From the NCBI RefSeq assembly GCF_963921235.1, contig NC_086108.1, positions 68,078,001-68,142,000 on the forward strand: a stretch of DNA of 64,000 nucleotides, in the 5' to 3' direction. The stretch's first letter is position 1, and every line of letters begins with the position of its first letter. Below the pieces are notes generated by a model. It was not told the DNA's origin and made no database searches. It saw only the letters and a list, made by a program, of their open reading frames with translations. The translations under genes were made by a program, and so were the position numbers. Origin of the DNA: Mobula hypostoma. Lineage: Eukaryota. Shown piece by piece: positions 1 to 64,000 of this stretch.

Positions 1-1416
1 TACTTCCTCCACATTGCATTGAGGGTGGGGATGGGAACCCCAGCTCATGCTCCCCCAGGACCCCAGCTTTGAGCAGCACTGAAAACATTTCTTTATGGGA
101 CATGTAGGATCCCCCACTCAACATCTGCAATCCAACTTCCATACCCGGCTATGCGCTCCCTCTTCTACATACTCTAAACCTTATAATAATTGAATCGCTG
201 TACTTATAGAACGGCCAGCAGCTGGTGCTAGTAAAGACAGCAGTATTCCCTCAGGTGTAACCACATGTCTTATCAAACCAGAAGTTAATTCAACATCCTT
301 TGGTGGGCTAACACTATTCTGGTATAATTCTGTGATGAGATCCCACTCGCATAGAACTTTAGTATCCTCCTCTACTGCAGTCCATTCTGCTTGGAATTTT
401 AAATTCTGTTCAGAAAGAGCATGATACTTGAATTTAACCACTGCCATTACCAAATCCAATTGTGATACATAATGCTCAGGGGAAGCAAGTAGCATTCTCC
501 AGGCATTATTGATCAAGCATTAGGACTATAGGCTCTCTGAAGCACCCACCCATCTGTTTGATAGGCTCACTCCAGTACACCCCTCGTCCCACATCCTCAA
601 TAAACACACAGCAAAGATTCCCAGACTTTTGTCTGCAGCTGTCCCCTAAACTCGATAATTCCTTAGCGGGAACTCCCTGAGCTCTGTTGTCTCAAAGGTA
701 CCCACCTACCATCCCCCACACATTCCCGATCCCTCTTCCCGCACCACCCCCCCCCCCGAGAGGAAGAAGCTGCGGGTGTGGGAACACAGGATTTCCATAT
801 TATTTTGGATACGCAGGGGAGAGGGCGATCATTTTTAGAATTGAACCGAGTGGTCCACGATACCCTCTCTCCTTTATTTTCATTATCCACCCAGACATTC
901 CCATCCCCCAGCCCCACAGTAGGATCATCGCCCCACCTCATCATGGCTTGAACTTTAACAGGGTTGGGTTGCCAACCAGCTCGGGGCACAGCACCTAAGT
1001 GCTGTATCTTCATTAGCTGACGAGCTATTTCTATACTCTTATCCTCTAACTTCGCAGCTCGAGTCTGGGCCATCAGCAATGATTCTCTCAGAACAATACA
1101 GTGCTGATTGAGGCTCACAACCTTGTCCTTCACCATTTTATACTGATGCCTTACGATCACTGAAAACAGTCAGAAAGCATCCTGACAGCTATCCTTTCTC
1201 CTGGGATGACCCAGTGATTTAAATATGGAAACAAGGTGCTGTCCTATTTCAACCCCAGTGAAATCTAACTGGTCTGACCAACCTCCTGGCATCCCATAAT
1301 CTATCAGTAGGTTTAGCGAGACTTCCAAAGCCCTTTCTGTTATCTGTCCACTCTGGGACTCTGCTTCTCTCAGACAGGGCTCCCTCTCTTTTAAAGAATC
1401 TTTTAAAGAAATGCAT
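1..1416 (-). pseudogene. gag: Decayed gag of an ERV-L-like (class III) endogenous retrovirus; runs off the left edge
   Basis: Minus-strand translation across stops and frameshifts gives DAF*LFSVIVR, AQTRAAKLEDKSIEIARQLMKIQH, VKVQAMMRWGDDPTVGLGDGNVWVD, KELSSLGDSCRQKSG/IFAVCLLRMWDEG (580-650), WTAVEEDTKVLCEWDLITELY, PKDVELT and MSHKEMFSVLLKAGV. These are colinear with remembered MuERV-L/HERV-L Gag motifs (VKVRALIGKEWDP..WDGDVW; QKSGE..WILRVWDNG; PEDxPFT). Confidence 0.8.
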
Positions 1417-1434
1417 TTCTACTCAAGTAGCCAT

Positions 1435-1452
1435 ATCCTGCTGGCAGCACCA
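1435..1452 (-). promoter_or_regulatory. Primer-binding site, tRNA-Ser-like
   Basis: TGGTGCTGCCAGCAGGAT on the minus strand, 3 nt after the LTR-terminal CA. Resembles the complement of the vertebrate tRNA-Ser 3' end (TGGCGCTGTGAGCAGGAT, from memory). Confidence 0.7.
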
Positions 1453-1455
1453 AAA

Positions 1456-1841
1456 TGGAACGTTGAATCATCAGATTCACCTATCTGGAGACTTAGACAG
1501 AAAACACTGACTGTGAATAAGTACGTTAATCATTTCTTTACAACAGTAAATATTCAACCAAACATTCATGTTCCCCAACTTAGAGAAACTACAAAGCTGA
1601 ATATTCAACAAACATACTTAGTTAAGAGCACACACAGAGCATACATTCCCAATGGCTATGTGAACCGCCTGCCTGAAGGAAAGCAAGAGAAAGAAAGCCT
1701 CTTCCACTTGTTATTTTATACCTGAGGTATTTGAAACTGGGCACCAAGTGGTTTACCAATGGGAAAAGCAGTTGCAGTTTCTAAACTAACCAATCACGAC
1801 AGAAGTGACTCTCAACAATCAAAATAAGGCACTGACCCACA
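1456..1841 (-). mobile_element. 5' LTR of the provirus (about 386 bp)
   Basis: Minus strand runs TGTGGG...TTCCA. TATAAAA at 1714-1720, with CCAAT boxes upstream (about 1756 and 1791). Abuts the PBS on one side and CR1 sequence on the other. Confidence 0.75.
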
Positions 1842-1990
1842 GAACAATAGGTTCCTGATTAGTCAGGACATCACAGGTTATGGGGAGGAGGCAGGAGAGT
1901 GGAATTGAGACAGATAATAAATCAGACATAATGAAATGGCGGGGCAGACCCAATGGGCTGAATGGCCAAATTCTGCTCCTATCTCATACA
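1842..1990 (+). mobile_element. CR1 LINE 3' end, cut off on the left by the provirus
   Basis: ttcctgattagtcagg...ggctgaatggccaaattctgctcct matches the 3' ends of the CR1 copies at 9470-9618 and 27530-27680. Confidence 0.8.
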
Positions 1991-1999
1991 ATTTAAGAC

Positions 2000-2410
2000 A
2001 CGGGGTCGCCTGTTGCAGCCACCCAGTGGAGACACTGAAGGCTGTATGGGTGACAGCAGAGGTGCAGGTGTGCTGGAGTCCATGCTGGCTGAGGACTGGC
2101 CTCCTGTCAGAGCTGCTCTCCAGTGTTCGCATGGTGGAAGACAAGCTGGATTACGTTCCTCTGCAGCTGCTGCCAGCTTCTTCCTGCCAACAACATCCAG
2201 GCACCATCAATCTACAGGAAATGACACTCGGGGACTTGGGCTGTATTTTTTTGTGTGACTGAATGTTTACTGCTATCTTATATCTGCTATATGGCTCCTG
2301 AGCTGTGTGTAACTGTTGGTACAGTGCTTTGCACTTTGGCCTCAAGGGAATGCTGATACATTTGGCTGTATTCATTTATTGTTGAAATACAACTAAACTT
2401 TAACTTGAAT
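2000..2410 (+). mobile_element. Short internally deleted Rex1/L2-group element (endonuclease start joined to a 3' tail)
   Basis: LLSSVRMVEDKLDYVPLQL resembles the APE N-terminal motif LLANVRSLENKLDEL. It is followed within about 100 bp by a 3' tail ending aactaaacttttaacttgaat. Confidence 0.5.
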
Positions 2411-3204
2411 GTGAAGTTGAACAAACTATTACTTTTCAAAATTGGTGTAATCATCAAAACAGAACATTGGGATTAAATTTTATCCTTCTTAGAAAATTAA
2501 ACCATATTTTTCCATGTTACACATTGAAGCTACATAACCAAGAGATTAGAAGTCTACATCTTTTTCTAAGGATAAAGGACAAGAAAAGAATACGGAGGAA
2601 CGTGAAATGGTTTACGAAAAAAATCATTCATCAACGAATAATAGTCTGGAAAGCTGATCTCACAAAATAATCTTATAATCATCTTGCTTCTACACCTATT
2701 TCATTTCAAGATGTTGAATCAAATCACTCCTTGCCTTCATTACCATTCCCACATGCTTTGCATCATAATTAGCGATTAAACATCCTTTTAAACAATAAAA
2801 CAGGGCTTTGAGGGCCAGCTAGATATTTTACTGTTTGAAGCTCATATTTTGCGACAATTTTGGCTTACAAAGATGCCATAGGGTGTGTATTGTTAATTTC
2901 TTCTTTTTTTTTGCTCCTTGTATGTGCCATCTCAATGAAATGCTTAAAAATATTATTTATGAGGCATTGTTCTTCAGTACAAACCTTATGATTTGCCAGT
3001 GGTAGGTGCACTGTTGCTGCATGGTAAACAGTATTATTGCTGCTAGCAAGCACTTCAATGTCCGTGAATGGATAAGGACACATGTCGCGTCACTATGTTT
3101 TGGCAGATTTTGCCCTTTAGTTTTAGACCCCATATCAGGTTGGTATGTTTTGATTGTTGCCCATAATCAAAGGTTCAAAGAGACTTTGGAGTCCAAGGCA
3201 GGAT

Positions 3205-4990
3205 TTTGTAAAGGTTAACTTGCAGGCTATCAAGAAAGACAAATGCAATGTTAGCATTCATTTTGAGATGACTACAATACAAAAGCAAGAATATAATGCT
3301 GAGGCATTATTTGGTGTTGGTCAGACCACATTTGGAATATTGGGTCCGTATCTAAAGAAGGATGTGCTGGTGTTGGGGGGGTTCAGAGGAGGTTTACAAA
3401 TTCAATCTCAAGAATAAAAGGGTTAAGATATAAGGAGCAAGAAAGTAAAATGGCAAGCTAACCTCGCTAGCTGTACCTTACAGAGTCTGTCAGTGGATTA
3501 CGAACTTCCGTACAGCGAGGAAGCAGTATGTAAGGCTGTGCTCTTATTTGTCCATCCAGTTTCTACAGAGCACAGGCTCTCCCTAAGGTAGTGTTTTTTC
3601 ACCCTCCTGTTCTCACTTTATACAAATGACTATACCTCCACAGTTAAATAGAAATCCATTTAAATCCTCAAGTTCACGGATGACATGACTGTAATTGGTC
3701 TCATTTCTAGTAATGATGTGACCTGCAATCAAAGAGAGGTAAACTGTCTTGTAACATGGTGTGCTCATAGCAATGTGGAGCTTAATACGATCACTATCAA
3801 GACAGTGGAAACTGGATTGACTTCTAACAACCCCATACCTGCTCTCTCTCCGACTTGGAAATTAATGGTTTGGCTGTGTCTGTGGTCAAGTTATCCAACT
3901 CCTAGGGACTATCATGACCAATACGTTGAAGTGGGACATGCATCTGATGCTCATCACTAGGAAAGCCCAGCAGAGATTGTTCTTCCTACACCAGCTTCGG
4001 AAATTTAACATCTCAGGGTGTACCCTCATGATTTTTTTTTAACTCAGTTGTCATTGAGAATGCTGTGACCACCTCTATCACTATTTGGGTTCCCACTGCC
4101 TCTTCACTCCCCAAGTCCAGGCTGCAGTGAGTGGTCCACACTGTGGAGAGGATCACTGGCTGTCAGCTGCTGACATTAAAAGACCTGTTCACTTCCAGAG
4201 TGAAGAAAAGGGCTGGAAAAATAACTGCTGACTTTACTCACCCTTGCAGGCACCTATGCACCAAATTGCCATCAGGGACACACTCCAAGTCCATCACCAC
4301 CAGGACACGACCACAAGGATCTCCAAAGCTTCTTTCCTGGGGCTATCCAGCTTTTCAACAAAGCCCAAGCTGTTCCTGCACAATATCTATTAAGTGGTCT
4401 TTCCTGTTCTCATTATTCTGTTGATGATTATTGAGTCTGTTCATATGTTCACATTTATTTAAAATGATTATTGGTGTTTTTGGATGTGACCATTCTGCTA
4501 ATTGTTGATTGCTCATGACTGTTTGCACTATTATCTTGTAAATTGTTGGTGGCTATTGTGTTGTCTGTCATGGGATGGTATGTGTCATATACTAGCATTA
4601 AAGTGATTCTGATTCTGAGAGTTTGATGGTTCTGGGCCTAAATAGAATGGGCAGAATGAAAATGTTTCGAGCAGTAGGACTGTCTGGAACCAGAGGGTAC
4701 AGCCTCAGGATTAAAGGATGACACATTAGAACAGAGATGAGAAGGAATTGCTTTAGCCAGAAGGTGGCAAATCTGTGGGATTCAATGCCACAGATGGTTG
4801 TGAAGGCCAAGTTTTTTAGCATATTGAATGAGCAGGTTGATAGGTTTTGATTAGTAAGGGCATCAAATGCTAGGGGGAGAAGGCAGGAGAATGGGGTTGA
4901 GATGGAAAAGTAAATCATCCACGATTGAATGACCGAGCAGAATTGATGAGCTCAATGGCTTAATTCTGCTCATACATTATGCCAATGGCC
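3205..4990 (+). mobile_element. Old CR1 3' part, split by the insertion at 3440-4618
   Basis: CR1 text stops at gggttaagatataaggagc (about 3438) and resumes at tttgatggttctgggcct (about 4622), as in the uninterrupted copy near 27230-27260. Confidence 0.75.
3440..4618 (+). mobile_element. Rex1/Babar-type LINE fragment (RT region and 3' tail)
   Basis: LKFTDDMTVIGLI at about 3667-3705 and KAQQRLFFLHQLRKF at about 3961. Ends in attaaagt(gattct)2. Confidence 0.75.
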
Positions 4991-5997
4991 ATTATTACTT
5001 CCTGGATAGACCCCCTTTTCTGATTCCTGGAATACAGTCTTCTATTCTGTACCCACAATTATTTTTATCATTTGACATTTTCTTTTTTTTAGTATACTAT
5101 GGGTCAGTCAATCAATTTATCTTAGAGCTCAAAGTGTCCTTTTATTTACAATTATCTTCTGAATCCACCAAAATCTTTACTTATCAATCTGAAGTTCTGA
5201 ATCGATTGTGCATTCAAAGTGCCAATGTCTCTAAATCAAAGATTTAGAAAATCTGTATTTCTGTTTCTTTTAAAAATTTGAAGTTAGTCCATCATTTACT
5301 TAAAAGGAAACTTTGAAGTATCTTATCATCTACTGTCTTTTATAATAACTATGTGGCTCTAACATATTGAAATTTAGTTATTTCTAAAATGATTGCACTT
5401 TACTATCACAACTTCAAACTAAGCCTCTTCAATCACTGTTCATGTTGGCAACATCCTGTGCTTTGGAAGTTAATTGCTGCAAATGAAGCAGCACAAAAAT
5501 GATATAGAAATGTATTGATTGCACTAATAGTCTATTAGCAAAGTCAACTAGCTCTTAAATGACTTCTGGTATCTTAACAAGCAACCTACAGTTTAATATA
5601 ATACGGAATACACTGTTAGCTGCTTTCGGGAACACTTAAATACAAAACACTAACTGTACTATCATTCTGGCGTAGCTAGAATGAGCACTTTAGTTTTTCA
5701 AGACACTAAAGTTCTAATATCCTAGCAATGTTAATAAGCAATCTTATTATTTTCAGATCAATTTACCCATGTACAGCAAAAGTTATGTAGCAGATATAGA
5801 AATTCTGCTTCAGATGAATCCAATGTTATCTAAATTTTACATGTTATCTTTACATCAAAAGTCAACTAATTTATATTTTATACTTGTTTTCATGTCTTAT
5901 TTCTATCTGGACATAGACATTACACTGCAGAATGGAATAAAAGTTAAACCATGTGATGTGATGTTAATTAGGTGTACTTAACCTCACTGTATCACCT

Positions 5998-8900
5998 CCA
6001 GAGAACCAGGACTTCTGTGCAAAAATTTAGACTAGGATAAATGGGTAACTGTCAGGATAGGGAATGGGGAATGTCAGATAATGGAGACCACCCCTGTGGC
6101 CACCCCCCTCAACAATAAGTACTCCATTTTGCATACTGTTGGAGTTGGGGGGTGGGGAAGGGATCTACCTGGGGGAAGCACTAGTGGCTGCACCTCTGGC
6201 ACTGAGTCTGGCCCCGTGGATCAGAAGGGTAGGGAACGGAAGAGGATGGCAGCAGTAATAGGGGACTCTATAGTTAGGGGGACAGATAGGCAATTCTGTG
6301 GACACAAAAAAGAAACACAGACGGTAGTTTGCCTCCCAGGTGCCAGGGCCCGTGATGTTTCTGAACTCGTCCACAATATCCTGAAAAGGGAAGGTGAGCA
6401 GCCAGAAGTCGTGATACATAGTGGTACTAATGACGTAAGTAGAAAAATGGAGGAGATCCTGAAAACAGAATAGAGGGATTCAGGAAGGAAGCTAAGAAGC
6501 AGGACCTCAAGGATAGTAATCTTGGGATTGCTGCCTGTGCTATGCCAAAGTGAGGTTAGGAATAGAATGAGGTGGTAGATAAATGGGTGGCTGAAGAATG
6601 GGATCAGGGAGCAGGGATTCAGATTTCTGGATAATTGGGACCTTTTCTGGAGCAGATGGGACGTGTACAAAAAGAATATGTTGCACTTGAATCTGAGGGG
6701 GGGGGCCAATATTCTTGTGGGCGGGTTTACTAGAGCTGTTGGGAATGGTTTAAACTAATATGGCGGGGGATGGGAACCAGTATGATAGAGCTGAGGATGA
6801 GCCAGCAGGTTTACAAGTAGATGGGTGTAACATGAATATAAGGAAGGTCAAGCCAATGATTGGGTACAAATGCAGAGAGAGCAAAGAGGTAAATTGTACC
6901 ACAAAGTCAAAATTCAAAAGGGCGAAGAATGCAGGATTGAAGGTGCTGTATATAAATGCATATAGCATTCGGAATAAGGTGAACAAATTTGTGACACAAT
7001 TAGAGATTAGTTGTGCCACAAAGGACAGGCAGGAAGGCATAGGCAGTGGTGTGGCTCTGTTGGTATGAGTTGGAATTACATCTTTAGAGAGAGGTGACAT
7101 AGAGTCAGAGAATGTTGAATCTTTGTGGGTGGAGATAAGAAACTGCAAAATTTTTTTTTAAGTGGGAATCATAAGTAGGCCTACAAATAGTAGCCATGAT
7201 GTGAGGCTGACATTGCAAAGGAAGCTGGAAAGGGCATGTAATAAGGGTAGTGACACAATTGTAATGGAGGACTTCAATATGCAAGGGGATTGGGAAAATC
7301 AGATTGGTGTCAGATCGCTAGAGAGGGAATTTGTTAAATGCCTATGAGATGGCTTTTTCGAACAGCTTGTGCTTGAGCCTACTCGGGCAAAGGCTACCTT
7401 AGATTAGGTTTTGTGTAATAACCCAGATCTTATTAGGGAGCTTAGCGTAAAGGAACCCTTCGGAGGCTTTGATCATAATATGATTGAATTCATAAGGCAA
7501 CTTGAGAGGGAGAAGCACAAGTCACAGGTATCAGTATCGCAATGGAATAAGGGGAATTACAGAGGCATGAGAGAGGAGCTTGCCCAGGTGGATTGGAGGA
7601 GGATACTGGCAGGGATGATGGCAGAAGTTCCTGGGAATAGTTCACAAGGTGCAGGATAGCTATGTCCTACAGAAGTTGTTGTTCTCAAATGGCAGATGTA
7701 GGCAACCGTGGCTGACAAGGGATGTTAAGGATTGCATAAATGCCAAAGAAAGGAGATATAATATAGCAAAAATGAGTGGGAAGTTGGATGATTGGGAAGC
7801 TTTTAAAATCCAACAACAGGCAACTAAAAAAGCTATAAGAAAGGAGAAGATGAAATATGAGGGCAAACTAGCCGATAATATAAAGCAAGATGCTAATTTT
7901 TTTTCAGTTATATAAAGAGTGAAAGGGAGGTCAGAGCCGATATTGGACCACTGGAAAATGATGCTGGTGAGGTAGTAATAGGGGACAAAAAAAATGGCAG
8001 ATGAACATAATGGGTACTTTGCATCAGTCTTCACTGTGGAAGACACTAGCAGTGCCCCAGAGGTCTGTGACTGTCAGGGAGCAGGAGTGAGTGCCATTGT
8101 TATTACAAAGGAAATAGTGCTAGGCAATTTCAAAGGTCTTAAGGTAGATAAGTCACCTGGACCAGATGGACTACATCCCAGAGTTCTGAGAGAGGTTACT
8201 GAAGAGATCACAGATGCATTGGTCATGATCTTTTAAGAATCACTTGATTCTGGCATGGTCCCAGAAGACTGGAAGATTGCAAATGCCACTCCAGTCTTTA
8301 AGAAGGGAGGATGGCAAAAGAAAGGAAAATCTAGGCCAATTAGCCTAACCTCAGTGGTTGGGAAAATGTTGGAGTCTGTTATTAAGGACTAGGTTCCAGT
8401 GTAATCTTGCCTGACAGATCTGTAAGAGTTCTTCGAGGAAGTAACAAGCAGGGTGGACAAAGGAGAGGCAGTGGTGTCAATAACTTGAATTTTCAAAAGG
8501 CATCTGATAAGGTGCTTAACAAGATAAAATCCTATGGCGTTACAGGAGAGATACTAGCATGGAAAGAGGAGTGACTGACAGGCAGGAGGCTGTGAGTGGG
8601 AATAAAAAGGGCCTTTTCTGGTTGGCTTCTGGTAACTAGTGGTGTTCCTCAGGGGTCAGTATTGGGACCGCCACTTTTCACATTGTTTGTCAATGATTTA
8701 GATAGTGGAATTGATGGCTTTGTGGCCAAGTTTGCAGATGATATGAAGATAAGTGAAGGGGTTGGTAGTACTAAGGAAGCAATGCGATTGCAGCAGGACT
8801 TAGACAAATTGGAAGAATGGGCAAAAATGTTGCAGATGGAATACAATGTTAGGAAATGTATGATCCTGCATCTTACTAAAAGGAACAATAGTGTGGACTA

Positions 8901-20049: not shown

Positions 20050-20325
20050 AGTTTTCCACCATCATTCTGGTAGAGATGTACATTCCACCTTAGGCAAACA
20101 CCAGGCAGGCACTGGAGGAGCTAAGCACTACAATCAGCAGGACTGAAACAGCACATCCTGATACCTACCTTATTATCATGGGGGATTTCATCCAGGCTAG
20201 CTTGAAGTCTCTGAACAATTACCAACAACATAACACTTCTGGAACCAGAGGAACCAATACACTTGACCACTGTTATACCATTATCAAGAATGCTTACCAT
20301 GCCATACCACACCCACACTATAAAC
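20050..20325 (+). mobile_element. Rex1-type APE endonuclease fragment
   Basis: YIPP...GDFIQASLK...TRGTNTLDHCYTIIKNAYHAIPHPH. Confidence 0.8.
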
Positions 20326-20328
20326 CGG

Positions 20329-20650
20329 AAAGGGAGCGAGCAGGGCGGAGCTCGGGTGGGTCTGGGAGGGGGCGAGCAGGGCGGAGCTCGGGTGGGTCTG
20401 GGAGGGGGCGAGCAGGGCGGAGCTCGGGTGGGTCTGGGAGGGGGCGAGCAGGGCGGAGCTCGGGTGGGTCTGGGAGGGGGCGAGCAGGGCGGAGCTCGGG
20501 TGGATCTCGGAGAGAGAGAGCAGGGCGGAGCTCGGGTGGATCTCAGAGGGAGAGAGCAGGGCGGAGCTCAGGTGGATCTGGGAGGGAGAAAGTTGGGTGG
20601 AGCTCGTGGAGGTGAGAGGGAGAGAGCAGGTGGAGCTCGTGGAGGTGAAG
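20329..20650 (+). repeat. 36-bp G-rich minisatellite, about 7 good copies then degenerate ones
   Basis: Unit GAGCAGGGCGGAGCTCGGGTGGGTCTGGGAGGGGGC starting at 20338, 20374, 20410 and 20446 (identical), then diverging at 20482, 20518 and 20554. Confidence 0.95.
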
Positions 20651-21928: not shown

Positions 21929-22588
21929 TACAAGGAACACACATCAAAGTTGCTGGTGAATGCAGCAGGCCAGGCAGCATCTGTAGGAAGAGGTGCAGTC
22001 GACGTTTCAGGCCGAGACCCTTCGTCAGGACTAACTGAAGGAAGAGTGAGTAAGGGATTTGAAAGTTGGAGGGGGAGGGGGAGATCCAAAATGATAGGAG
22101 AAGACAGAAGGGGGAGGGATAGAGCCAAGAGCTGGACAGGTGATAGGCAAAAGGGATACGAGAGGATCATGGGACAGGAGGTCTGGGAAGAAAGACAAGG
22201 CGGGGGGGACCCAGAGAATGGGCAAGAGGTATATTCAGAGGGACAGAGGGAGAAAAAGGAGAGTGAGAGAAAGAATGTGTGCATAAAAATAAGTAACAGA
22301 TGGGTACGAGGGGGAGGTGGGGCCTCAGCGGAAGATAGAGAAGTCGATGTTCATGCCATCAGGTTGGAGGCTACCCAGACGGAATATAAGGTGTTGTTCC
22401 TCCAACCTGAGTGTGGCTTCATCTTTACAGTAGAGGAGGCTGTGGATAGACATGTCAGAATGGGAATGGGACGCGGAACTAAAATGTGTGGCCACTGGGA
22501 GATCCTGCTTTCTCTGGCGGACAGAGCGTAGATGTTCAGCAAAGCGGTCTCCCAGTCTGCGTCGGGTCTCGCCAATATATAAAAGGCC
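21929..22588 (-). mobile_element. Penelope-like element 3' end (GIY-YIG C-terminus and terminal repeat)
   Basis: Begins at GLLYIGETRRRLGDRFAEHL. Colinear with 35325-36010 and 43738-44390. Confidence 0.9.
21996..22033 (-). ncRNA. Minimal type-I hammerhead ribozyme motif, intact core
   Basis: TAGTC-CTGACGA-AGGGTCTCGGCCT-GAAA-CGTC^GACTG: stem I AGTC/GACT, core CUGANGA...GAAA, palindromic ACGU stem III, GUC cleavage triplet. Confidence 0.8.
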
Positions 22589-34105: not shown

Positions 34106-34894
34106 GAGGACTTCATTAGAATTCTTATCAGTAAAGGTTTTGTTAGACTAGTTTGTAATTTTGTGCTGCTAGCATATGTGAAATTAGTTAACTTGAAAAC
34201 ACAGCTATTATCTACCTACATATACAGATTGTTAGTATCTTAGTTGCTGTGCTTCAAAGAGATGTTTCTGTTGAAAGTATTGTTTATTGCTGAGTAAAAA
34301 TAAACTGAGTTTTTCATTTATCCTGGATCTTATATATCATAAAATTGTAAAGTATCTATGTTCCATCAGTTATTATTTGTGTAAGTGAAACTAAGCTATT
34401 GCACCCCTGAAAATCCATGAATCTCTGAAAAGCATGGCAGATAACATATTTGCAACTGTCCAGCACCAATGTCCTCACTAAACTGTGGAGTGTAATTATC
34501 TCATGTGTACAGACTGGCAGGCACACTCACTGTCGTGAGTTCATTGAAAGTACATGCAAGCTTCGTATCCTCACCATTGCCATAAGTCAGGGGCACCACT
34601 CTGCTGCTTCACCCACCCTCAACAAGAAATGCTTATAATAAACAAAATTCATGTTTCACACTGCTTATGGCTCAGTCTGTTCACCCAACAATCACAAAAT
34701 AAAAATATTCAGACCCACACTTAACACCATAAACAGGAATCAGAAGCATTAATTACTTACATTGAAACCAATTTACAACTTTGCTCAAGTCTTGTAGGTT
34801 GTGATCAGTGGTAGTGATTTCTGAAGATGGGTACTTATGATTGGATGTGGGTGTTGGAATGCAATATTGCCTTCTTTAGCACAGATTAAACCTG

Positions 34895-36045
34895 CAAATT
34901 CTGCTCTCAAATGCATTTCTCACATTTCACACACATCTGCTCTCACCCCATCCTCCTGCCACCCCACTAGGAATAGGGTTCCCCTTGTCCTCACCTACCA
35001 CCCCACCAGCCTCTGGGTCCAACATATAATTCTCTGTAACTTCCGCCACCTCCAACGGAATCCCACCACCAAGCACATCTTTCCCTCCCCCCTCCCCCTT
35101 CAGCTTTCCACAGGGATCGCTCCCTACGCAACTCCCTTGTCCATCCGCGCCCCCCCCCGCCAATTCCTTCCCACCGCTCTCCCTCCCGGCACTTATCCCT
35201 GTAAGCAGAACAAGTGCCACACATGCCCTTACACTTCCTCCCTCACCACAGTCCTTCCAGGTGAGGCGACACTTCACCTGTGAGTCGGCTGGTATGATAT
35301 ACTGCATTCGGTGCTCCAGGTGCAGCCTTCTATATATTGGTGAGACCCGACGCAGGTTGGGAGACTGTTTCGCTGAACACCTACGCTCTGTCCGCCAGAG
35401 AAAACAGGATCTCCCAGAGGCCACACATTTTAATTCCACATCCCATTCCCATTCTGATATGTCTATCCACAGCCTTCTCTACTGTCAAGATGAAGCCACA
35501 CTCAGGTTGGAGGAACAACACCTTATATTCTGTCTGGGTAGCCTCCAACCTGATGGCATGAACATTGACTTCTCTAACTTCCATTAATGCCCTTCCTCCC
35601 CTTCTTACCCCATCCCTTATTTATTTCTTTATTATTTTTTATTTTTTCCCTTTTCTCCTCTCTCTTTTTTCTCCTTCTGTCCCTCTCACTATAACTCCTT
35701 GTCTGCTCTCCATCTTCCTCTGGGCTCCCCTCCCCCTTTCTCTCTCCCTCGGCCTCCCATCCCATGATCCTCTCCCTTCTCCAGCCTCGTATCCCTTTTG
35801 CCTATCAACTTCCCAGCTCTTAGCTCCATCCCTCCCCCTCCTGTCTTCTCCTATCATTTCGGATCTCCCCCTCCCCCTCTCAAATCTCTTACTATTTCTT
35901 CTTTCAGTTAGTCCTGACGAAGGGTCTCAGCCCGAAACATCGACTGTACTTCTTCCTATAGATGCTGCCTGGCCTGCTGCATTCCACCAGCATTGTATGT
36001 GTGTGGCTTGAATTTCCAGCATCTGCAGACTTCCTCGTGTTTGCT
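34895..36045 (+). mobile_element. Penelope-like element 3' part with GIY-YIG endonuclease and terminal repeat
   Basis: ORF 35261-35587 FTCESAGMIYCIRCSRCSLLYIGETRRRLGDCFAEHL...HFN...EQHLIFCLGSLQPDGMN. Hammerhead motif at 35909-35946. Confidence 0.93.
35909..35946 (+). ncRNA. Minimal hammerhead motif, stem III mutated (ACAT)
   Basis: TAGTC-CTGACGA-AGGGTCTCAGCCC-GAAA-CATC-GACTG. Confidence 0.7.
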
Positions 36046-38117: not shown

Positions 38118-39730
38118 CAATGCCTATAAAAAGTTTTCACCCCCCCCTGGGAAGTTTTCATGTTTTATTGTTTTACACCATTGAATCACAGAGGGTTTAA
38201 TTTGGCTTTTTTGACACTGATCAACAGGAAGAGACTTTCATGTCAAAGTGAAAGCAGATCTCTACAAAGTGATCTAAATTAATTACAATATAAAACAATA
38301 ATTGGTTGGGCAAGTATTCACCACCTTTGTCAATATTTTGTAATTGCTTCTTTGGCAGCAATTATAGCCTTGAGTCTGTGGGGATAGATCTCTATCAACT
38401 TTGTACATGTAGACACTGCAATTTTTCCTCATTCTTTACAAACCTGCTCAAACTCTGCCAGATTGCATGGGAATCGTGAGTGAACAGCCTTTTCAAGTCC
38501 AGCCAGAAATTCTCAATTGGATTGAGGTGTGAACTCTGACTTGGCCACTCCAGGACAGTAACATACTTGTCTTTAAGCCATTCTTGTGTAGCCTTGGTTT
38601 TATGTTTGGGGTATTGTCTTGCTGGAAAAAAAATCTTCTCCCAAGTTGCAGTTCTCTTGCAGACTGCAACAGGTTTTCCTCCAGGAGTTCCCTGCATCTG
38701 GCTACGTTCATTTCATGCAAGTTTTTTGAACAATGGTTTCTCTTTGCCACTTTCCCATAAAGCTGCGACAGGTGAAGCACCTGGGCAACAGTTATTGTAT
38801 GCACAGTCTCTCCCATCTCAGTCACTGAAGCTTGAAACTCCTCCAGATTTGTCATAGGTCTCTTGGTAGCCTTCCACACTAGACCCCTTCTTGCACAGTC
38901 AGTCAGTTTGTGAGGAAGGCCTGCTCTAGGCAGATTTTCAGCTGTGCCATACTCTCACCATTTCTTGATGATTGACTAAGACCAAGGGATGTTCAGTGAC
39001 TTGGAAAATGTCTTGTATTCATCTCCTGACTTGTGCTTTTCAATAACCTTTTTACAGAATTGTTTAGAGTGTTCTTTTGTCTTACATGGTGTAGTTTTTG
39101 CCAGGATACCGACTCACCAGCAGTCGGCTGGTGGCGCAGTGACATCAACACTGGACTCCGGAACGGAGGTTCCCAGGTTCTATTCCAGTCAGGCTGCTTC
39201 TGAGTACGCTTTCCATCCATGCTGGGTTGTCTGTTGAGCTCGCAACTCAACCTCGTAAAATAAAGTCTATGCGAGGAGTGGCACCCCACACAGCTTTCCG
39301 ATCCGCACCTTGTAAGGCATAAAAATGCCCAACGCTGGCCTCCCAGGCCTGAGTCGACATTATAATCAGCAGTTGGACCTTCCAGATAAAGGTGTTTCTT
39401 TCACTACAATCAACTGAAACACCTTGACTGCACAGGGTGATCTCCATTTAGCTAATTTATGTGACTTCTAAATCCAATTGGTTGCACCAGTGATGATTTG
39501 GTGTGTCATATTAAAGGAGGTTGATACTTATGCAATCAAGATATATTTTATATTCGTAATTAATTTAGATCACTTTGTAGAGGTCTGTTTTCACTTTGAC
39601 ATGAAACAGTCTTTTTCTGTTGATCAGTGTCGAAAAAGTCAAATTAAATCCACTGTGATTTAATGTAAAACAATAAAACATGAAAATTTCCATGAGGGGT
39701 GGGGGTAGTTAATACTTTCTATAGGCACTA
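38118..39730 (-). mobile_element. Tc1-like DNA transposon with about 200-bp TIRs and an internally deleted transposase
   Basis: TA|CAATGCCTATA...TATAGGCACTA|TA; inverted repeats at about 38118-38322 and 39518-39730. FFFQQDN and [16 protein letters not shown] motifs are present. The segment with the first catalytic Asp appears deleted. Confidence 0.93.
39125..39366 (+). mobile_element. tRNA-derived SINE inside the Tc1, 7-bp TSD
   Basis: A-box TGGCGCAGTGAC, B-box GGTTCTATTCC. CAGCAGT at 39118-39124 and 39367-39373. Confidence 0.85.
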
Positions 39731-43737: not shown

Positions 43738-45015
43738 ACACACATAAAAGTTGCTGGAGAACGCAGCAGGCCAGGCAGCATCTCTAGGAAGAGGTACAGT
43801 CAACATTTCGGGCTGAGACCCTTCGTCAGGACTAACTGAAAGAAGAGCCTGTAAGAGATTTGAAAGTGGGAGGGGGAGGGGGAGATCCAAAATGATAGGA
43901 GAAGACCGGAGGGGGAAGGATGGAACCAAGGGCCGGACAGTTGATTGGCAAAAGGGATATGAGCGGATCATGGGACAGGAGGCCTAGGGAGAAAGAAAAG
44001 GGGGGGGGGAAGCCGAGAGGATGAGCAAGGGGTATAGTGAGAGGGACAGAGGGAGAAAAAGGAGAGAGAGAAAAAGAATGTATGTATATAAATAAATAAC
44101 AGATGGGGTACAAGGGGGAAGTGGGGCATTAGCGGAAGTTTGAGGAGTCAATGTTCATGCCATCAGGTTGGAGGCTAGCCAGACGGAATATAAGGTGTTG
44201 TTCCTCCAACCTGAGTGTGGCTTCATCTTTACAGTAGAGGAGGCTGTGTATAGACAATTCAGAATGGGAATGGGACGTTGAATTAAAATGTGTGGCCACT
44301 GGGAGATCCTGCTTTCTCTGGCGGATAGAGCGTAGGTGTTCAGTGAAACGATCTCTCAGTCTGCGTCGGGTCTCGCCAATATATAGAAGGCCACATCGGG
44401 AGCACCGGACACAGAATGTCACCCCAGCTGACTCACAGGTGAAGTGTCGCCTCACCTGGAAGGACTGTCTGGTGCATGTGTAGCACTTGTTCCGCTTACA
44501 AGGATGAGTGCCAGGAGGGATGGGGGGACGAATGGACAAGGGAGTCGCGTAGGGAGCGATCCTGCGGAAAGCAGAGCGGGGGGGAGGGAGAGATGTACTT
44601 AGTGGTGGGATCCCGTTGGAGTTGGCAGAAGTTACGGAGAATTATATGTTGGACCAGGAGGCTGGTGGGGTGGTAGATGAGGACAAGGGGAACCCTATTC
44701 CTAGTGGGGTGGCGGGAGGATGGAGTGAGAGCAGATGTGCGTGAAATGGGGGAAATGCATTTGACAGCAGAGTTGATGGTAGAGGAAGGGAAGCCCCTTT
44801 CCTTAAAAAAGGAGGACATCTCCCTCGTCCTGAGAGTAGATGCGGCAGAGATGGAGAAATTGCGAGAAGGGGATGGCGTTTTTGCGAGAGACAGGATGAG
44901 AAGAGGAACAGTCCAGATAGCTGTGAGAGTCCGTAGGCTTATAGTAGACATCAGTAGATAAGCTGTCTCCAGAGATAGAGACAGAAAGATCTAGAAAGGG
45001 GAGGGAGGTGTCGGA
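43738..45015 (-). mobile_element. Penelope-like element (RT C-terminus, GIY-YIG, terminal repeat)
   Basis: SLPFLDLSVSISGDSLSTDVYYKPTDSHSYLD, FCVRCSRCGLLYIGETRRRL. Hammerhead motif at 43797-43834 (TAGTC-CTGACGA-AGGGTCTCAGCCC-GAAATGTT-GACTG). Confidence 0.93.
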
Positions 45016-62258: not shown

Positions 62259-64000
62259 TAGAAACCATAGAAACAATAGAAACTACAGCACAGAAACAGG
62301 CCTTTTGGCCCTTCTTGGCTGTGCCGAACCATTTTCTGCCTAGTCCCACTGACCTGCACACGGACCATGTCCCTCCATACACCTCCCATCCATGTATCTG
62401 TCCAATTTATTCTTAAATGTTAAAAAAGAACCCACATTTACCACCTCGTCTGGCAGCTCATTCCATACTCCCACCACTCTCTGTGTGAAGAAGCCCCCCC
62501 TGATGTTCCCTTTAAACTTTTCCCCCCTCACCCTTAACCCATGTCCTCTGGTTTTTTTCTCCCCTTGCCTCAGTGGAAAAAGCCTGCTTGCATTCACTCT
62601 ATCTATACCCATCATAATTTTATATACCTCTATCAAATCTTCCCTCATTCTTCTACGCTCCAGGGAATAAAGTCCCAACCTATTCAACCTTTCTCTGTAA
62701 CTGAGTTTCTCAAGTCCCGGCAACATCCTTGTAAACCTCTTCTGCACTCTTTCAACCTTATTTATATCCTTCCTGTAATTTGGTGACCAAAACTGAACAC
62801 AATACTCCAGATTTGGCCTCACCAGTGCCTTATACAACCTCATCATAACATTCCAGCTCTTATACTCAATACTTTGATTAATAAAGGCCAATTTACCAAA
62901 AGCTCTCTTTACGACCCTATCTACCTGTGATGCCACTTTTAGGGAATTTTGTATCTGTATTCCCAGATCCCTCTGTTCTACTGCACTCCTCAGTGCCTTA
63001 CCATTAACCCTGTATGTTCTACGATGGTTTGTCCTTCCAACGTGCAATACCTCACACTTGTCAGTATTAAACTCCATCTGCCATTTTTTAGCCCATTTTC
63101 CAGCTGGTCCAAGTCTCTCTGCAGGCTCTGAAAACCTTCCTCACCGTCTACTACACCTCCAATCTTTGTATCATCAGCAAACTTGCTGATCCAATTTACC
63201 ACATTATCATCCAGATCATTGATATAGATGACAAATAACAATGGACCCAGCACTGATCCCTGTGGCACACCACTAGTCACAGGCCTCCACTCAGAGAAGC
63301 AATTCTCTACCACCACTCTCTGGCTTCTTCCATCGAGCCAATGTCTAATCCAATTTACCACCTCTCCATGTATACCTAGCGACTGAATTTTCCTAACTAA
63401 CCTCCCATGCGGGACCTTGTCAAAGGCCTTACTGAAGTCCATGTAGACAATATCCACTGCCTTCCCTTCATCCACTTTCCTGGTAACCTCCTCGAAAAAC
63501 TCCAATAGATTGGTCAAACATGACCTACCACGCATAAAGCTATGTTGACTCTCCCAGGTAAGTCCCAGTCTATCCAAATGCTTGTAGATTCTGTCTCTTA
63601 GTACTCCTTCCAATAACTTACCTACTACCGACGTTAAACTTACTGGCCTATAATTTCCAGGATTACTTTTCGATCCTTTTTTAAACAACGGAACAACATG
63701 AGCCACTCTCCAATCCTCCGGCACCTCACCTGTAGACAGCGACATTTTAAATATTTCAGCCAGGGCCCCTGCAATTTCAACACTAGTCTCCTTCAAGGTC
63801 TGAGGGAACACCCTGTCAGGTCCCGGGGATTTATCCACTTTAATTTTCCTCAAGACAGCAAGGACCTCCTCCTTTTCGATCTGTACAGTTTCCATGATCT
63901 CACTACTTGTTTCCCTTAATTCCATAGACTTCATGCCAGTTTCCTTAGTAAACGCAGAAGCAAAAAACCTATTTAAGATCTCCCCCATTTCCTTTGGTTC
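62259..64000 (-). mobile_element. Young CR1 LINE, ORF2 RT and C-terminus with a single frameshift; continues beyond the right edge
   Basis: ORFs 62990-63988 and 62340-63077: KSPGPD, NYRPVSLTS, DFSKAFDKVPH, SGVPQGSVLGP, SKFADDTK. Tail (tttctatgg/tg)n. Confidence 0.95.

Follow-up and report, generated by a model that had tools for sequence, protein, structure and literature searches.

The probable 5' end of a decayed class III (ERV-L/ERV-S-like) provirus in a ray genome

What kind of retroelement lies at the left edge of this stretch of the Mobula hypostoma genome, and what has become of it? The 64,000 nucleotides analysed here, which we call the window, carry on the minus strand of positions 1-1841 an LTR-like block (1841-1456), followed by a primer-binding site (PBS; 1452-1435) and then by a decayed gag that runs past the window edge. 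Together these are very probably the 5' end of a decayed class III provirus (ERV3, clade Huo, ERV-L/ERV-S-like) of a ray family. Class III endogenous retroviruses (ERVs) fall in clade Huo, which is present in all vertebrate groups (Xu et al. 2018, PMC6001957). The class assignment made here is from Gag and the PBS; the usual basis is pol, which lies beyond the window.

Layout of the element and its surroundings

The features of the element, and of the repeat that adjoins it, are as follows.

1456-1841, minus strand: 5' LTR, 386 nt, with a TGT start, two reverse CCAAT boxes, TATAAAA and a CA end; putative 5' border
1435-1452, minus strand: PBS, 18 nt, TGG start, apparently most like a tRNA-Ser PBS
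1417-1434, minus strand: very short leader; PBS start to ATG 36 nt, versus 39 nt in the mouse ERV-L-type provirus L021
1315-1416, minus strand: probable gag N-terminus, basic, no Gly after Met; assigned by eye on the model of Gag starts in frog and killifish
678-1310, minus strand: gag N-terminal half, with a coiled-coil stretch and a VKVQAMM...GDGNVW motif; one stop, at 1172
580-673, minus strand: class III MHR-like stretch, with frame changes near 675 and 615; MHR rows are published in PMC8278194
130-612, minus strand: capsid-like gag region; stops at 528, 522 and 183
1-124, minus strand: C-terminal gag block, with block 103-59 after a further frame change; gag continues past the window edge
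1847-1990, plus strand: 3' tail fragment of a high-copy LINE, outside the provirus; six other copies in the window

The LTR begins with TGT (1841-1839) and ends with CA (1457-1456; ACA in run contigs of other copies), followed by a TTT spacer and then the PBS. The TG..CA termini and promoter motifs of the preliminary description are present, TATAAAA at 1720-1714 and the CCAAT boxes solely in reverse orientation (ATTGG at 1794-1790 and 1760-1756). The 386-nt block contains no canonical AATAAA polyA hexamer. Because there is no second copy of the LTR in the 64-kb window, the position of the 5' border, 1841, is taken from the TGT and from the adjoining LINE fragment, which starts at 1847. A short direct repeat lies inside the LTR at 1549-1614, where two similar TGTT(T)G(G)TTGAATATT-type units can be recognized by eye; in the run contigs, the LTR bin that holds this repeat has the highest LTR depth.

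The 18-nt, TGG-starting PBS reported earlier is where it should be, at 1452-1435, 3 nt past the LTR end. It is identical at 13 of 18 positions, by eye, to the PBS of the frog element XtERV-S, called tRNA-Ser by Yedavalli et al. 2021 (PMC8278194). To the PBS of L021, the start of which resembles an African bullfrog PBS called leucine in the same paper, it is identical at 8 of 18. A tRNA-Leu PBS, as in strict ERV-L (MuERV-L/HERV-L), was looked for by comparison with L021 and was not found beyond those 8 positions. The primer type is, by likeness of sequence, probably nearest to tRNA-Ser. Because the PBS is nearer to the Ser PBS of XtERV-S than to that of mouse ERV-L, 'ERV-L/S-like class III' is a better label than 'ERV-L'. 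The original term, 'ERV-L-related', holds in that the element is class III with an ERV-L/Fv1-type Gag; it does not hold in the strict sense of ERV-L. PBS type is a labile marker (PMC8922424). Phage tRNAs (not host tRNAs) fitting a PBS-derived pattern were found at 21 loci, and were of type Thr at 4, Leu at 3, Ser at 3 and none at 11.

The reading frame that follows is decayed, as was first described, and is interrupted by no fewer than four stops and by several shifts of frame. The first ATG after the PBS, at 1416, opens a frame that begins MHFFKRFFKR, basic and without a myristoylation signal; it is the putative start codon, and the stretch 1315-1416 lies outside the scored profile alignment considered below. 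The lack of a myristoylation signal and a basic Gag N-terminus are class III features (Table 2 of PMC8278194). The Gag motifs reported at the outset occur at their sites and in their order (VKVQAMM, 959-939; GDGNVW, 908-891; RQKSG, 634-620; CLLRMWDEG, 606-580), spread over three frames rather than in a single one. Across all six reading frames of the 64 kb there is a single occurrence of the class III MHR core pattern, at 600. Stops in the aligned frames are at 1172, 528, 522 and 183, and the frame changes are near 675 and 615; two more frame changes, near 1313 and 125, are suggested by eye. No Cys-His zinc finger was found in three frames of 1-1452, the end of gag lying beyond the window. The capsid-like stretch gave an unusable AlphaFold model (pLDDT 58, pTM 0.33), and fold searches with it gave an uninformative best Z of 4.7 and best E of 1.4.

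Repeats of other kinds crowd the rest of the window. The LINE tail at 1847-1990, which we take to be CR1-type, has loose contig ends at 1847 and at 1980-1982, and in three of the four runs its depth exceeds 200,000. Beyond it lies a further multi-copy repeat (2011-2412; depth 3000-7000 in run X1). A 36-bp tandem repeat, with about 7 overlapping copies listed, occurs at 20295-20649 inside a LINE endonuclease-like frame. Retroelement fragments bearing GIY-YIG, presumably Penelope-like, occur at 34825-35587 (PF01541, E 0.0066) and 44129-44990, with related copies near 22000 and 36700. There is a Tc1/mariner-type transposase fragment at 38493-38954 (PF01498, E 1.3e-6), and fairly intact LINE reverse-transcriptase frames extend from 62340 to 64000 and past the right edge (PF00078, E 1e-28). 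This load of LINE, GIY-YIG and Tc1-type fragments is compatible with the LINE-rich pattern of elephant shark, without proving it.

Gag ancestry

Direct searches with the window translation gave nothing relevant. A word-index homolog search with the N-terminal half returned 0 of 708 candidates, and full phmmer with the capsid half returned none at E ≤ 0.001 among 1.84 billion representatives. A PDB sequence search gave weak, unrelated matches only (E ≥ 0.17). IMG/VR yielded no relative; a motif scan there gave one match, L001, with a weak tblastn hit. In Pfam, neither the natural ORFs nor the X-read frames matched a Gag family, and the Ty3/Gypsy, gamma/epsilon and foamy Gag models gave none at E ≤ 10, a negative weakened by the HMMER filters and by decay; L021 Gag itself matches only DUF5535. 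Reference Gags were therefore needed from elsewhere. Gags of this kind are easily missed, because they have no close protein relative in the databases searched.

A motif scan of metagenome contigs gave at least 28 loci. Among the matches listed, 3 of 28 (L013, L016 and L021) are class III ERVs; four more fitted the peptide pattern without looking related, and the others were set aside. L021 is a mouse ERV-L-type provirus, the MHR of which is identical to that printed for MuERV-L in supplement 6 of PMC8278194. Its Pol has the order RT, RNase H, integrase, then dUTPase, and its Gag (570 aa) retrieves 55 ERV-L Gag and Fv1 proteins. L016 and L013 are bird-type class III ERVs; L016 retrieved 379 matches, and the named ones among the best 120 of 379 are almost all from birds.

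The frameshift-aware Gag/Fv1 search proposed in the preliminary description was carried out with three profiles: mammal (54 proteins), bird cores (117 proteins) and the two combined. With the mammalian ERV-L Gag and Fv1 profile the region scored 51.6 bits, above all controls; it scored 35.8 with the bird profile and 50.3 with the combined one. These scores were not matched by any of the 300 dinucleotide shuffles or of the 84 other tiles of the window, the null maxima being 29.2 (mammal, shuffles and tiles alike), 27.2 (bird) and 33.7 (combined), and the opposite strand gave 15-18 bits. Relative to the shuffles, z is 8-13. The path is colinear: 1256-678, 673-617 and 612-229 of the window correspond to residues 55-241, 243-276 and 278-412 of L021 Gag.

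Single comparisons are more variable. In BLASTP, the N-terminal half matches L021 Gag with 25% identity over 140 aa (E 1e-4). The capsid half gives E 0.057 against L021 Gag, which is thin against a single reference, and E 5e-4 (22% over 160 aa) against the bird-type L016 Gag. In hhalign, the capsid half gave 62% (E 7.5e-5) against 46 references, and the N-terminal half only 0.9% against a mixed profile. Per-frame hmmsearch of 252 tile frames placed the region first with three of four profiles (E 0.004-0.6), a weak single-frame signal; the mammal-core profile placed another tile first. The C-terminal block at 103-59 was outside the top 6 of 1231 stretches scored with a block profile of 83 mammal and bird rows. 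The frameshift-aware profile, the colinear path and hhalign nevertheless support the principal claim made for this locus, namely that it is the 5' end of a class III provirus with an ERV-L/Fv1-type Gag.

Some of the reference proteins carry names or labels that call for comment. The parrot AMFR 'isoform X1' models P0148 and P0171 (Lathamus discolor and Pezoporus occidentalis; 895 aa each) hold a class III Gag stretch with 60-63% identity to L016, perhaps because both share an exonised ERV gag, or else through an artefact common to the two gene models. In Buteo and Tyto, isoform models of USP4 include a fused class III Gag. The name 'ubiquitin carboxyl-terminal hydrolase 4' is also given to many bird ERV Gags with no such fusion, which is probably a misannotation that is spreading (P0107, P0132 and many others). 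The species given for P0003, a mouse ERV-L-type Gag, is Trypanosoma congolense, and for P0112, a bird ERV Gag, Klebsiella pneumoniae; in both cases host DNA appears to have contaminated the assembly.

Family copies and the age of the insertion

Run contigs came from 4 of 20 listed runs (X1, X5, X9 and X13) at 80% likeness; X5 is from organism B and X13 from organism D. At least half of the words of the window are shared by four runs, all from one sample of organism A, which may be the source of the window, and the shares of organisms B-E are smaller. In X1, the summed contig depth is 13.4 over the unique flank (2547-3082), 105-852 over the internal region and 1775-7865 over the LTR bins (1475-1742). 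The same rank, flank < internal < LTR, is repeated in X5 and X13. Summed contig depth is not copy number, and we read it only as signifying a multi-copy family with an excess of LTRs; the excess would fit solo-LTR formation.

The insertion itself is shared. X5 bridges the junction of LTR and flank (1776-2147) with 12 differences in 372 nt, and it also covers the unique flank. X13 bridges the junction in one contig (1803-2103; 19 differences, 3 gaps), with 39 letters on the LTR side; this is a weaker case than X5, the unique flank being barely covered. X9 contains relatives only. Because the family is multi-copy and LTR-rich, and because the same insertion junction is present in two other organisms, this provirus is a dead copy, old and fixed. 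No protein comes from it today, and its LTR could at most be a putative local promoter. The locus itself is a dead repeat, and its orthologous LTR-flank junction provides a datable marker for the family.

Whether this copy is the front of a full-length provirus depends on what lies to the left of the window. It might instead be a non-autonomous, internally deleted LTR-gag-LTR derivative without pol (cf. MaLR and deleted XtERV-S), trans-mobilised by a full-length relative. Class III ancestry would hold under this reading too; the difference lies solely in what is found left of the window. Deletion does occur in the family: in run contigs, other members skip most of gag (joint 333-1137) or the PBS region (joint 1426-1495), and deleted subfamilies may have spread. 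Likewise, 19 deleted copies of XtERV-S retain the PBS and 5' gag (PMC8278194), and there is no class III pol within the 64 kb. Against this, the gag-like sequence reaches the C-terminal block, neither a 3' LTR nor a polypurine tract shows in the window, and in X1 the family depth at the left edge of the window is still high (399, versus 13.4 in the unique flank). One X1 contig extends 363 nt beyond that edge. We regard a deleted derivative as the less likely outcome, although it deserves to be taken seriously.

For the class III provirus that we favor, a history can be proposed from the known retroviral cycle. The ancestor would have been transcribed from the TATA box of its LTR, and its reverse transcription would have been primed by host tRNA-Ser. 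Its Gag, non-myristoylated and basic at the N-terminus, would have had a coiled-coil region, an MHR in the capsid and, so far as can be seen, no zinc finger. Following spread in the germ line, most copies would have collapsed to solo LTRs by LTR-LTR recombination. The copy at 1-1841 would have become fixed before the host species split, and would have decayed neutrally since.

Relatives and rival readings

Of the sequences compared, the closest relative appears, by eye and over the first ~400 characters of its entry, to be the Gag of the whale-shark element Rh_ty_ERV3. The printed protein of this element is an ERV-L-type Gag with a class III MHR (PMC6001957). Ungapped, it matches the window at 15 of 31 positions (249-157), 8 of 15 (103-59) and 8 of 43 (387-259). 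The second of these matches supports the C-terminal motif that the block profile missed. Identities of about 20-50%, depending on the block, make Rh_ty_ERV3 too divergent, as far as these sequences go, to be of the same family. It shares an elasmobranch host with the ray element; its printed entry starts mid-gag, and the comparison is of Gag only. Together with the killifish element No_fu_ERV1, it directly precedes HERV-L, MuERV-L and HERV-S in the label order, as distinct from the branches, of S2 Fig in PMC6001957. No_fu_ERV1 resembles the ray element in its basic Gag N-terminus and in a similar motif before the capsid. Five skate entries of the same dataset begin, in the parts shown, in pol-like sequence.

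XtERV-S is similar to the ray element in its LTR end, short T spacer, TGG PBS, basic non-myristoylated Gag start and class III MHR. It differs in being intact, with 705-bp LTRs, a 158-bp leader, a dUTPase and a gamma-type env (PMC8278194), whereas the ray element has an LTR of 386 nt, a very short leader and a broken gag, with pol and env beyond the window. The likeness to MuERV-L/HERV-L Gag and to Fv1 (L021; P0003-P0056) is colinear over residues 55-412 of L021, and extends to leaders of similar length (39 nt in L021, 36 nt here). These differ from the ray element in their Leu-type PBS (8/18 match) and in sequence (about 20-25% identity), and Fv1 is an intact host gene. Bird class III Gags (L013, L016; P0059-P0178) align in the capsid-like region (22% over 160 aa, E 5e-4, 35.8 bits), and in this comparison, which is of the capsid core only, they are no closer than the mammal set.

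Could the element belong to a different lineage of clade Huo, ERV4 or SnRV-like, or combine, by recombination, an ERV-L-type gag with another kind of pol? ERV4, of crocodilians and turtles, shares a 5-bp TSD and the absence of a zinc finger with ERV3, and is separable from it by pol phylogeny only (PMC4299795). SnRV-like ERVs, along with epsilon-like ones, are known in elephant shark (Han 2015, PMC4422223). Identity of the ray Gag to ERV3 references is just ~14-23%, and the competing models comprised no ERV4 or SnRV Gag profile. The best match by eye, Rh_ty_ERV3, is nonetheless listed in the ERV-L/S block, and Rh_ty_ERV2, the whale-shark element on the SnRV side, has a different Gag with a Cys-His box (PMC6001957). 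On this balance, we consider another clade Huo lineage improbable.

Less probable still is that the element is an LTR retrotransposon of some other kind (Ty3/Gypsy), or that its motifs are a chance string. The want of any direct database match would suit such a reading; the z of 8-13 against shuffles, with colinear segments, does not, and nor does the want of a Gypsy Gag family in Pfam at E ≤ 10, weak though that negative is for decayed sequence. Finally, the same Gag type gave rise to Fv1 in rodents (PMC8922424) and the insertion is shared between organisms. For the copy at 1-1841, a domesticated Fv1-like host gene is nevertheless refuted: its frame is broken by four stops and by several shifts, of which two fall in the MHR-like stretch, its LTR and PBS are still attached, and its family is multi-copy. 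'Fv1-type' thus stands for sequence ancestry only, this copy being a broken provirus.

How new, then, is the class III provirus described here? The preliminary description implied that such elements are rare far from mammals. This has not been borne out: a whale-shark ERV with the same Gag type is in the 2018 dataset (PMC6001957), and among cartilaginous fish the most frequent ERV loci, by RT, are those of clade III (2843 in six chondrichthyan genomes; PMC11089739). Frog ERV-L-like elements are also on record (PMC8278194; bioRxiv 10.1101/2024.07.05.601823). The ray element is not, therefore, the first ERV-L/S-related virus from elasmobranchs, a whale-shark relative being already in print. A literature search, with thin coverage of subscription papers, found no paper that names an ERV-L-type family in rays; other papers that it returned have, in the parts available, little bearing on the question (PMC4977317, PMC10699275, PMC12287698, PMC8672886, PMC10435555, PMC5381603, bioRxiv 10.1101/2021.11.23.469661). 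The family is probably unnamed in published papers; Repbase and Dfam were outside the scope of the search and may list it.

What the ray copy adds is structure. Published shark ERV surveys classify by RT, and this copy displays a 5' architecture: a short LTR, a Ser-like PBS, a very short leader and an ERV-L-type Gag. Few ERV-L/S-like viruses are on record from fish, and the family adds to them; from the same lineage come Fv1 and the element of the mouse 2-cell stage. A bolder idea is that the ray family and Rh_ty_ERV3 form a deep shark-and-ray branch of ERV-L/S that predates the elasmobranch split, and that a selected, intact Fv1-like gag exists among the copies. We would call this combination a long shot; were it true, the same Gag would have been domesticated independently in the ray family, far from mammals.
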